Positions 1,430 to 2,656 of a stretch of 22,617 nt of DNA are shown here, piece by piece. The number at the start of each line of letters is the position of its first letter. Positions within the stretch are counted from its first letter, which is position 1. The translations under genes and the position numbers were made by a program. Origin of the DNA: a bacterium (GTDB taxonomy: Bacteria > Cyanobacteriota > Vampirovibrionia > Gastranaerophilales > JBAXKC01); assembly GCA_037137535.1 (NCBI GenBank), contig JBAXKC010000040.1:1-22617 (forward strand), in the 5' to 3' direction. The notes beneath the pieces were generated by a model that saw nothing but the letters and a program-made list of their open reading frames with translations, was not told where the DNA came from and did not search any database.

Positions 1430-2656
1430 TTAAAACTGATAACCTTCACCGTTAATATTATATGATTTTTCAAAAATATTGTTACATTCATCTTTAGAAA
1501 TAGGTGTAAAAGTCTTGTTATAAATATCATATTCAGTTCCTGTTTTGTCGGTAAGGTCAAAAATCAATTTATTTCTAGGATCAATAACAAACTTTTTACC
1601 GTCATCTGAATTATATTCAAGCCATGCATGACTTTTCCTATCTACCAAAGTTGTGTGGATATCACTTAACTGAGCTATTGCTTTTAAAAATAAGGATTGA
1701 TTAATACAAGTTGCTGTCGCTTTAGGTGTACCAAAACCGCCCTCTGAGAATTCGCCTATATTTGTAAGACGAGTCGGTAAATGATTTTGTTTAAAATCAG
1801 AATAATACTGTGCATTTCCATTTATAGAAATTGCATTTTCATTATAACAAGAATAATGCACTGTCTCATTTTTTATAATAGGATCAACTATTAATTCAGG
1901 TTTAAAAAATTCTGATACTGTATTAAGTAAAGTTTTCGACACTTCCATAGAATCGGCTTTATCTATATTGTTTAAATTTTCATTTAATCTTTGCGAAGCT
2001 TTTACTAAAACAGGGTCATCCTCTAAATTTATTTGAATGTTATAAACAGGAAAAGTTGACTTTGCGTTATTAATATACCCTCTATAGTAATCGTTCATCA
2101 TAGGCAATCCATTTTTATCATATTCAAAACTTGAATATATAAAACCTTTTTCAAAATCTTCATTTAATGTTATAGATGTGGATTCTCCTAATGAAAAGTC
2201 ATCACACCGTTCAGTATAATTCTTCATTTGTTCATAGGCTTTAGGAGAAATAGCGGCAGCATAAAATTGTTTAGTTAAATCTCTACCCACTTTTCGGATT
2301 TTATTACCCTGCTGAACATAAGTGTTTCTTATGGTTTCATCTCTATTTTGCGGTAAAACTTCATCTAAATCAGTTTTAACAGCTTTTTTATTAAGAATTT
2401 CCGCCTTATCAATATATCCAAGACCTTTTGCGGCAAGTTTATGTTTAAGATTATAATCCTTTTCTTTTGTTGCTAAATCCAGATAAATTTTTGCTTGTGT
2501 AAGTCTTTTATCTGCCTCTTCAATGAAATTAGTGATTTTTTCAGCAGGAGAAGTTTGACGACTAAAGGAAATTTCTTTTGTCTGATTAATTTTATCGTTA
2601 TTTTTTGTAATAGCTGGCATTATTTTGGGCATATTATAATTATTTATAAATTTCAT
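1430..2656 (-). CDS. Hypothetical effector-like protein, paralog of 16318..17526. C-terminal Cys-His-Asp core resembling transglutaminase-like/papain-fold cysteine protease or deamidase.
   Basis: Shares blocks with the paralog: NLEDDPVLV...DSMEV...SEFF, and KATATC(x~27)SHAWLEY(x~10)FVIDPRNK. C...HAW.EY...D spacing matches the TG-like core (C, H about 30 aa later, D about 15 aa later). Confidence 0.75.
   Translation of the reverse strand: MKFINNYNMPKIMPAITKNNDKINQTKEISFSRQTSPAEKITNFIEEADKRLTQAKIYLDLATKEKDYNLKHKLAAKGLGYIDKAEILNKKAVKTDLDEVLPQNRDETIRNTYVQQGNKIRKVGRDLTKQFYAAAISPKAYEQMKNYTERCDDFSLGESTSITLNEDFEKGFIYSSFEYDKNGLPMMNDYYRGYINNAKSTFPVYNIQINLEDDPVLVKASQRLNENLNNIDKADSMEVSKTLLNTVSEFFKPELIVDPIIKNETVHYSCYNENAISINGNAQYYSDFKQNHLPTRLTNIGEFSEGGFGTPKATATCINQSLFLKAIAQLSDIHTTLVDRKSHAWLEYNSDDGKKFVIDPRNKLIFDLTDKTGTEYDIYNKTFTPISKDECNNIFEKSYNINGEGYQF

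Follow-up and report, generated by a model that had tools for sequence, protein, structure and literature searches.

A rare bacterial protein family with a probable transglutaminase-like fold and a conserved Cys-His-Asp triad in an uncultured member of the Vampirovibrionia

We analyzed a 22,617-nucleotide (nt) stretch of contig JBAXKC010000040.1 (assembly GCA_037137535.1, positions 1 to 22,617; hereafter the window) from the metagenome-assembled genome (MAG) of an uncultured member of the Vampirovibrionia (Melainabacteria), with a G+C content of about 32%. Two of its genes encode paralogs of a family of hypothetical proteins. Paralog 1 (WCK67_11875, P0001) is a 408-amino acid (aa) protein encoded at 1430..2656, and paralog 2 (WCK67_11925, P0005) a 402-aa protein encoded at 16318..17526, stop codons included. 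Both genes appear in the list of open reading frames (ORFs) and were translated; the first matches P0001 exactly. The initial annotation of this DNA had placed both genes correctly, except that both lie on the minus strand.

The two proteins share 38% identity across 381 aa (BLASTP, E 2e-81). Identity rises from 25.9% on the N-terminal side of residue 205 to 52.5% on its C-terminal side; the latter value is close to the figure of about 50% first estimated for the C-terminal ~200 aa. The N-terminal half is the fast-diverging part of the family's proteins. All the shared motifs first quoted are present: PKATATC/PKATGTC, SHAWLEY/RHTFLEY, FVIDPRNK/IVIDPRNK, NLEDDPVLV, and DSMEV...SEFF. In paralog 1, the predicted nucleophile Cys317 (PKATATC) is encoded at 1706..1708, the predicted general base His343 (SHAWLEY) at 1628..1630, and the predicted third triad residue Asp359 (FVIDPRNK) at 1580..1582, all on the minus strand. 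Their counterparts in paralog 2, on the same strand, are Cys311 (16594-16596), His337 (16516-16518), and Asp353 (16468-16470). The order Cys-His-Asp is as first proposed; the spacings are near the first estimates, with 26 residues from Cys to His instead of 28 and 16 from His to Asp instead of 10 to 15.

A word-indexed search of 5.8 billion proteins recovered only five members of the family, all annotated as "MAG: hypothetical protein WCK67_... [bacterium]". Two of them, WCK67_11875 and WCK67_11925, are the window paralogs. Of the others, WCK67_12415 and WCK67_12420 carry consecutive locus tags on one 17.7-kb contig and probably form a tandem pair, and WCK67_10450 lies on a third contig. An exhaustive HMMER profile search of 1.84 billion cluster representatives returned 13 proteins at E <= 1e-3. 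One of them, P0014, is a 738-aa repeat protein matched over five short stretches (E 2.7e-5), which we rejected as a repeat-driven false positive. The cluster look-up assigned P0006 (WCK67_09465) and P0011 (WCK67_04535) to the MAG of the window genes. This MAG therefore encodes at least seven paralogs, as expected for the expanding family envisaged in the initial annotation. P0009, P0010, P0013, and P0015 all belong to a single other metagenome, where their contigs have a G+C content near 40%. The 174-aa P0007 is probably truncated by its contig start and was not counted as a stand-alone domain. Pattern scans of 185,579 GTDB species genomes and of JGI metagenomes revealed no further close relatives, and a search for relatives of P0015 recovered P0015 alone. 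The family is thus extremely restricted in its distribution.

Across 14 member sequences with identities down to about 19%, Gly301, His343, Glu347, and Asp359 are invariant, and Cys317 is kept in 13 of the 14. Lack of conservation of the Cys, His, or Asp, named at the outset as one of the observations that would refute the proposal, was thus not found. The close paralogs and the distant members align with an hhalign probability of 99.7% (E 5.8e-27) with the Cys, His, and Asp in register, and as judged from these alignments their homology is secure. The sole member with a serine at the predicted nucleophile position is P0013 (residue 241; L089 10001-11011), which retains the His and Asp and reads ETSLLQS where the others have GTC..QS. 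Either its nucleophile is a serine, or this copy has been inactivated.

The full-length AlphaFold2 (AF2) model of paralog 1 is mediocre overall (pLDDT 63.7); two parts of it are confidently predicted, a helical bundle (residues ~37-155) and a sheet in the C-terminal region. The all-helical N-terminal bundle (2192..2548, minus strand) comprises helices 37-64, 68-99, 107-133, and 138-155 and is 26% identical between the window copies. Residues 205-408, predicted again with the 14-sequence alignment, gave a good model (pLDDT 87.7, pTM 0.84). In this model, Cys317 starts a helix (317-330), His343 directly precedes the next long strand, and Asp359 closes the following strand, a placement read from the secondary structure of the model. 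A Cys at a helix start with the His and Asp on strands is the canonical papain-like or transglutaminase-like arrangement, and the model of paralog 1 shows the traits that define this superfamily (Pfam clan Peptidase_CA): an alpha+beta fold, a nucleophile Cys at a helix N-terminus, and an antiparallel sheet carrying the His and Asp. Foldseek comparisons with the PDB gave nothing significant: the full-length model retrieved generic helical bundles and MIT-like domains through its N-terminal domain, and the 205-408 model retrieved menin only (E 0.07 or worse). The C-terminal domain therefore probably adopts a transglutaminase-like (papain-fold) structure; the initial annotation had made the same call, which the papain-type prediction and the conserved triad residues bear out. 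It had also implied a catalytic domain starting around residue 230. The alignment of the family with a CTR1-like sequence, described below, puts the start near residue 160, at the FEKGF motif, so that the domain would span residues ~160-385 (1502..2179, minus strand) and include FEKGF (G171) and NLEDDPVLV (D214).

Neither window protein matches a transglutaminase family in Pfam, NCBIfam, or PDB sequences. Their link to the superfamily is transitive, through P0015, P0009, P0010, and P0011. P0015 matches PF14381 (EDR1/CTR1/ARMC3, peptidase-like) with 29.9 bits over residues 399-551, which span its Cys504, His534, and Asp550; the gathering cut-off of this family is 27 bits, and P0015 is the one distant member that passes it. 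By Pfam's own threshold, the window proteins, which have no match to the profile, are outside PF14381. P0010 matches it weakly (E 0.0062), residues 206-315 aligning with profile positions 13-128 in its N-terminal part, and P0009, P0011, and P0015 have weak matches to Transglut_core and/or Transglut_core3. When all members were scanned, the only recurrent families were Transglut_core3 (four or five members), Transglut_core (two), and PF14381 (one or two). Similarly, the two best Pfam matches of the family hidden Markov model consensus are PF14381 (16.0 bits, E 0.011) and Transglut_core (E 0.092).

For comparison, we used a CTR1-like plant sequence whose membership of PF14381 was confirmed (266 bits over its full length). 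The hhalign alignment of the family with this sequence is weak (E 0.006, probability 6%); it places INLEDDPVLV on IVDRRSDPAF and TC..QSLFLKAIA on LCRHRALLFKVLA. According to this weak alignment, the family and PF14381 may have in common a series of motifs leading up to the catalytic helix: (D/K)GF, followed by V-D-x-x-x-D-P-x-L, followed by G-x-C-x-x-x-(A/S)-L-(L/F)-x-K-x-(I/L)-A. On sequence grounds, we describe the family as a new and highly divergent transglutaminase-like branch whose nearest curated relative is PF14381. The two nevertheless differ in several respects. PF14381 proteins are typically fused to a Raf-like kinase or to armadillo (ARM) repeats, whereas members of this family have the N-terminal helical bundle instead and no match to kinase or ARM domains. 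The full Cys-His-Asp triad is present in this family, whereas the CTR1-like sequence lacks the His. Finally, this family is bacterial, whereas the papers that we found treat the EDR1 domain solely in eukaryotes; in the literature searched, stand-alone relatives from bacteria are not described. PF14381 has been placed among the transglutaminase-like papain-fold families as "highly similar to C71 and C93 peptidases" of MEROPS (PMC10318531). Kinases with an EDR1 domain have been called unique to plants and protozoans; little is known of the function of this domain, and work on it concerns plant Raf-like kinases and Toxoplasma TgTKL1 (PMC5874906).

The similarity of the family to the classical transglutaminase-core proteins (PF01841 Transglut_core and PF13471 Transglut_core3; TG2/TG3, TglA, TgpA, PNGase) lies under the curated thresholds, and, in contrast to these proteins, its members have neither accessory beta-sandwich or barrel domains nor a signal peptide. 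We found no specific structural or sequence likeness to BTLCP/LapG, Legionella Ceg10, Salmonella SpvD, OspI, Cif, or PMT-C3.

Taken together, these data make it fairly probable that the family consists of soluble two-domain proteins in which a helical bundle accompanies a transglutaminase-like thiol enzyme with a Cys-His-Asp triad, the paralogs differing in target specificity. The N-terminal ~120 residues would form the bundle and the C-terminal ~225 residues the papain-fold domain. Thiol catalysis is the most likely chemistry: Asp359 would orient His343, which would deprotonate Cys317 at the helix N-terminus, and the thiolate would attack a carbonyl of a protein substrate (an amide, an isopeptide, or a glutamine side chain) to give a thioester intermediate. 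This intermediate could be resolved by water, as in a peptidase, isopeptidase, or deamidase, or by an amine, as in a transglutaminase. We infer that the helical bundle chooses the target or partner and that the paralogs, at least seven in this genome, have diversified in target specificity.

Alternatively, the domain may have the transglutaminase fold but act without catalysis, as a scaffold for binding or as a regulatory module. Menin, Rad4/XPC, and erythrocyte protein 4.2 are precedents, as probably is the N-terminal domain of plant CTR1/EDR1, and several of these non-catalytic proteins are structural neighbors of the family. However, the His and the Asp never vary, nor does the Glu that flanks them, and the Cys is kept in all but one of sequences otherwise about 20% identical, as expected under selection for catalysis, and pseudoenzymes normally lose triad residues. 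The conservation pattern thus favors an active enzyme, and we consider a scaffold unlikely.

The initial annotation had presented these proteins as secreted effectors. They could be effectors or toxins that leave the cell independently of Sec, for instance through a Tad-like apparatus or the flagellar export gate, and modify proteins of another cell, a proposal compatible with the catalytic mechanism and differing from it in the site of action only. Gene neighborhoods differ among the nine contexts that we examined. In the window, paralog 1 has a SPFH/band-7 gene on one side and orphan ORFs on the other, and paralog 2 is flanked by one gene for an orphan membrane protein and another for an alcohol dehydrogenase of the iron type. 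Tad pilus genes adjoin a family member in two of the nine contexts. P0011 is convergent, with a 4-nt gap, to a tadC-type gene, the last of a complete Tad pilus locus (L005 10001-18535) that encodes RcpC, a secretin, TadZ/CpaE, TadA, TadB, and TadC, and in a different organism P0013 is convergent, with a 7-nt gap, to confirmed TadG-like and TadE-like genes (L089 10001-14330). This adjacency is more than we would expect by chance, but it was noticed post hoc and the genes are not co-oriented; the convergent orientation rules out co-transcription of the family genes with the tad genes. The P0011 contig also encodes a FliN/SctQ-FliO-FliP-FliQ-FliR export operon. Its FliP shares 64-73% identity with the FliP of genomes of Candidatus Gastranaerophilales, Vampirovibrionales, and Vampirovibrio, against no more than 53% with that of named members of other groups, which places the MAG in the Vampirovibrionia (Melainabacteria). 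An injectisome beside P0011 was considered but is not supported: flagellar FliP/Q/R and SctR/S/T profiles give the export genes similar scores, and the presence of FliO makes these genes probably flagellar.

Against export, Sec-type signals and transmembrane segments are lacking in all members of the family (maximum 19-residue Kyte-Doolittle hydropathy < 1.2). Secretion genes are lacking near seven of the nine contexts, the window included. Neither an immunity-like small ORF nor a polymorphic-toxin context was seen, and PADLOC and PHROG searches of the family gave no matches. A shared N-terminal export motif was not established either, the tests being weak and post hoc: [SATNGP]-F-x-[GSA] occurs in the first 70 residues of 16 of 44 neighboring orphans and 11 of 48 Pfam-annotated proteins (p 0.18), and I-N, I-Q, or V-N within residues 2-7 of 9 of 44 and 2 of 48, respectively (p 0.023, post hoc). 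The effector proposal is thus unsupported, and we regard it as doubtful.

Several features of these contexts were observed in passing. Many unrelated orphans, and the family itself, start with M-x-(x)-I-N/Q (MQIINTLRT, MNIQNFS, MIINTLSL, MNINRFSS), as noted for window ORFs 2984, 3555, 6814, 10282, 15203, and 19836 and for orphans of loci L001, L003, L006, and L088; many of these orphan proteins also have an (S/A)-F-x-G-type motif 10-65 residues from the start. We take these N-termini to resemble those of flagellin-type proteins. P0010 (L088 8806-13836) is flanked, on one side at one remove, by two paralogous proteins with N-termini of the form KGSALVDY(I/V)LP.AL.G.VFG.ALFSF, pseudopilin-like by eye; their identification as TadE was not supported by any Pfam match. 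In the export operon of the P0011 contig, the 164-aa FliQ-like protein (L005 4545-5039, minus strand) matches the 88-residue FliQ profile over residues 5-77 only and has a C-terminal extension of about 85 residues, and an unannotated 141-aa ORF lies between fliQ and fliR.

A bolder proposal joins the two remote links: the family would represent bacterial, catalytically intact prototypes of the eukaryotic EDR1/CTR1/ARMC3 domain, expanded in the Vampirovibrionia into exported, Tad-linked protein-modifying enzymes. The Tad part is suggested by the directly convergent position of two distant members, in two organisms, to tad genes. As a whole, we judge this proposal improbable. Finally, that C...H...D is a chance motif in a lineage-specific orphan with a domain non-homologous to transglutaminase-like proteins is very improbable and already disfavored: the window proteins have no direct profile match and the Foldseek results are non-significant, but fold assignment, triad placement, the Pfam matches of distant homologs, and conservation all agree.

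Under the preferred interpretation, a transglutaminase-like thiol enzyme, seven "hypothetical proteins" encoded by one uncultured Melainabacteria-type genome gain a fold and a probable active site. The family is new, its enzyme class well known; current Pfam and NCBIfam models miss it, and its members are predicted to be soluble, single-chain proteins with the full Cys-His-Asp triad retained. To our knowledge, the biochemical activity of the EDR1/CTR1/ARMC3 domain has never been defined. If the relationship to PF14381 is true, the family could offer a tractable system for the chemistry of this enigmatic domain; if it is false, the family adds a further divergent lineage to an enzyme superfamily that is already very large and well understood. 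It would have greater importance only if the remote EDR1/CTR1/ARMC3 link or the Tad association is true.

The window also carries a dispersed intergenic repeat of about 130-250 nt, present in both orientations in five full copies and one partial copy: 58-191(+), 6065-6233(-), 7883-8138(+), 12901-13150(+), 15996-16122(+, partial), and 17616-17850(-). Its conserved core, GTTCTTGAC..GCTTCTTTTCTTAC...GAGAAAAGAAGC, contains a 13-bp internal inverted repeat, follows an A/T palindrome and a small hairpin, and is matched five times in the window versus zero expected by chance. A structured RNA is not supported, with no Rfam match and no covariation; the repeat may be MITE-like, or it may serve in regulation or as a terminator. 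One copy (17616-17850) lies about 90 nt 5' of the paralog 2 start codon, and the partial copy (15996-16122) lies 3' of this gene. A link of the repeat to the gene family is not supported: no copy abuts paralog 1, and none was found in 89 other loci, including two of the same organism that carry paralogs P0004 and P0011. The juxtaposition of repeat and gene therefore looks incidental. A terminator-like hairpin, seen in a consensus scan only, lies 45 nt 3' of the paralog 2 stop codon (16246..16273, minus strand).

Other elements of the window are worth recording. On the far side of the 144-aa orphan ORF 2984..3418 and divergently oriented to paralog 1, ORF 3555..4268(+) encodes a 237-aa protein with a C-terminal DnaJ (J) domain (residues 184-233, E 1.5e-16) and no Pfam match outside it. 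The 828-aa orphan encoded by ORF 10282..12768(-) has no Pfam match and, by eye, several stretches that are hydrophobic; it contains an internal duplication (nt 11677-11724 and 12262-12309) with a recurring DPKNFI motif. ORFs 19836..21230(-) and 21493..22614(-) form a tandem lineage-specific paralog pair with 74% identity over 277 aa and 88% nucleotide identity over 300 nt. The former has no Pfam or PDB sequence match; the latter reaches the window edge and has an internal 180-nt direct repeat (22380-22437 / 22560-22617). A G+C-rich hairpin, AAAACGCTTCGGAAATAACCGAAGCGTTTTT, occurs three times (19262-19298, 19758-19794, and 21455-21491; two copies identical), 3' of the alcohol dehydrogenase gene and around this tandem pair, and looks like a reused intrinsic terminator.
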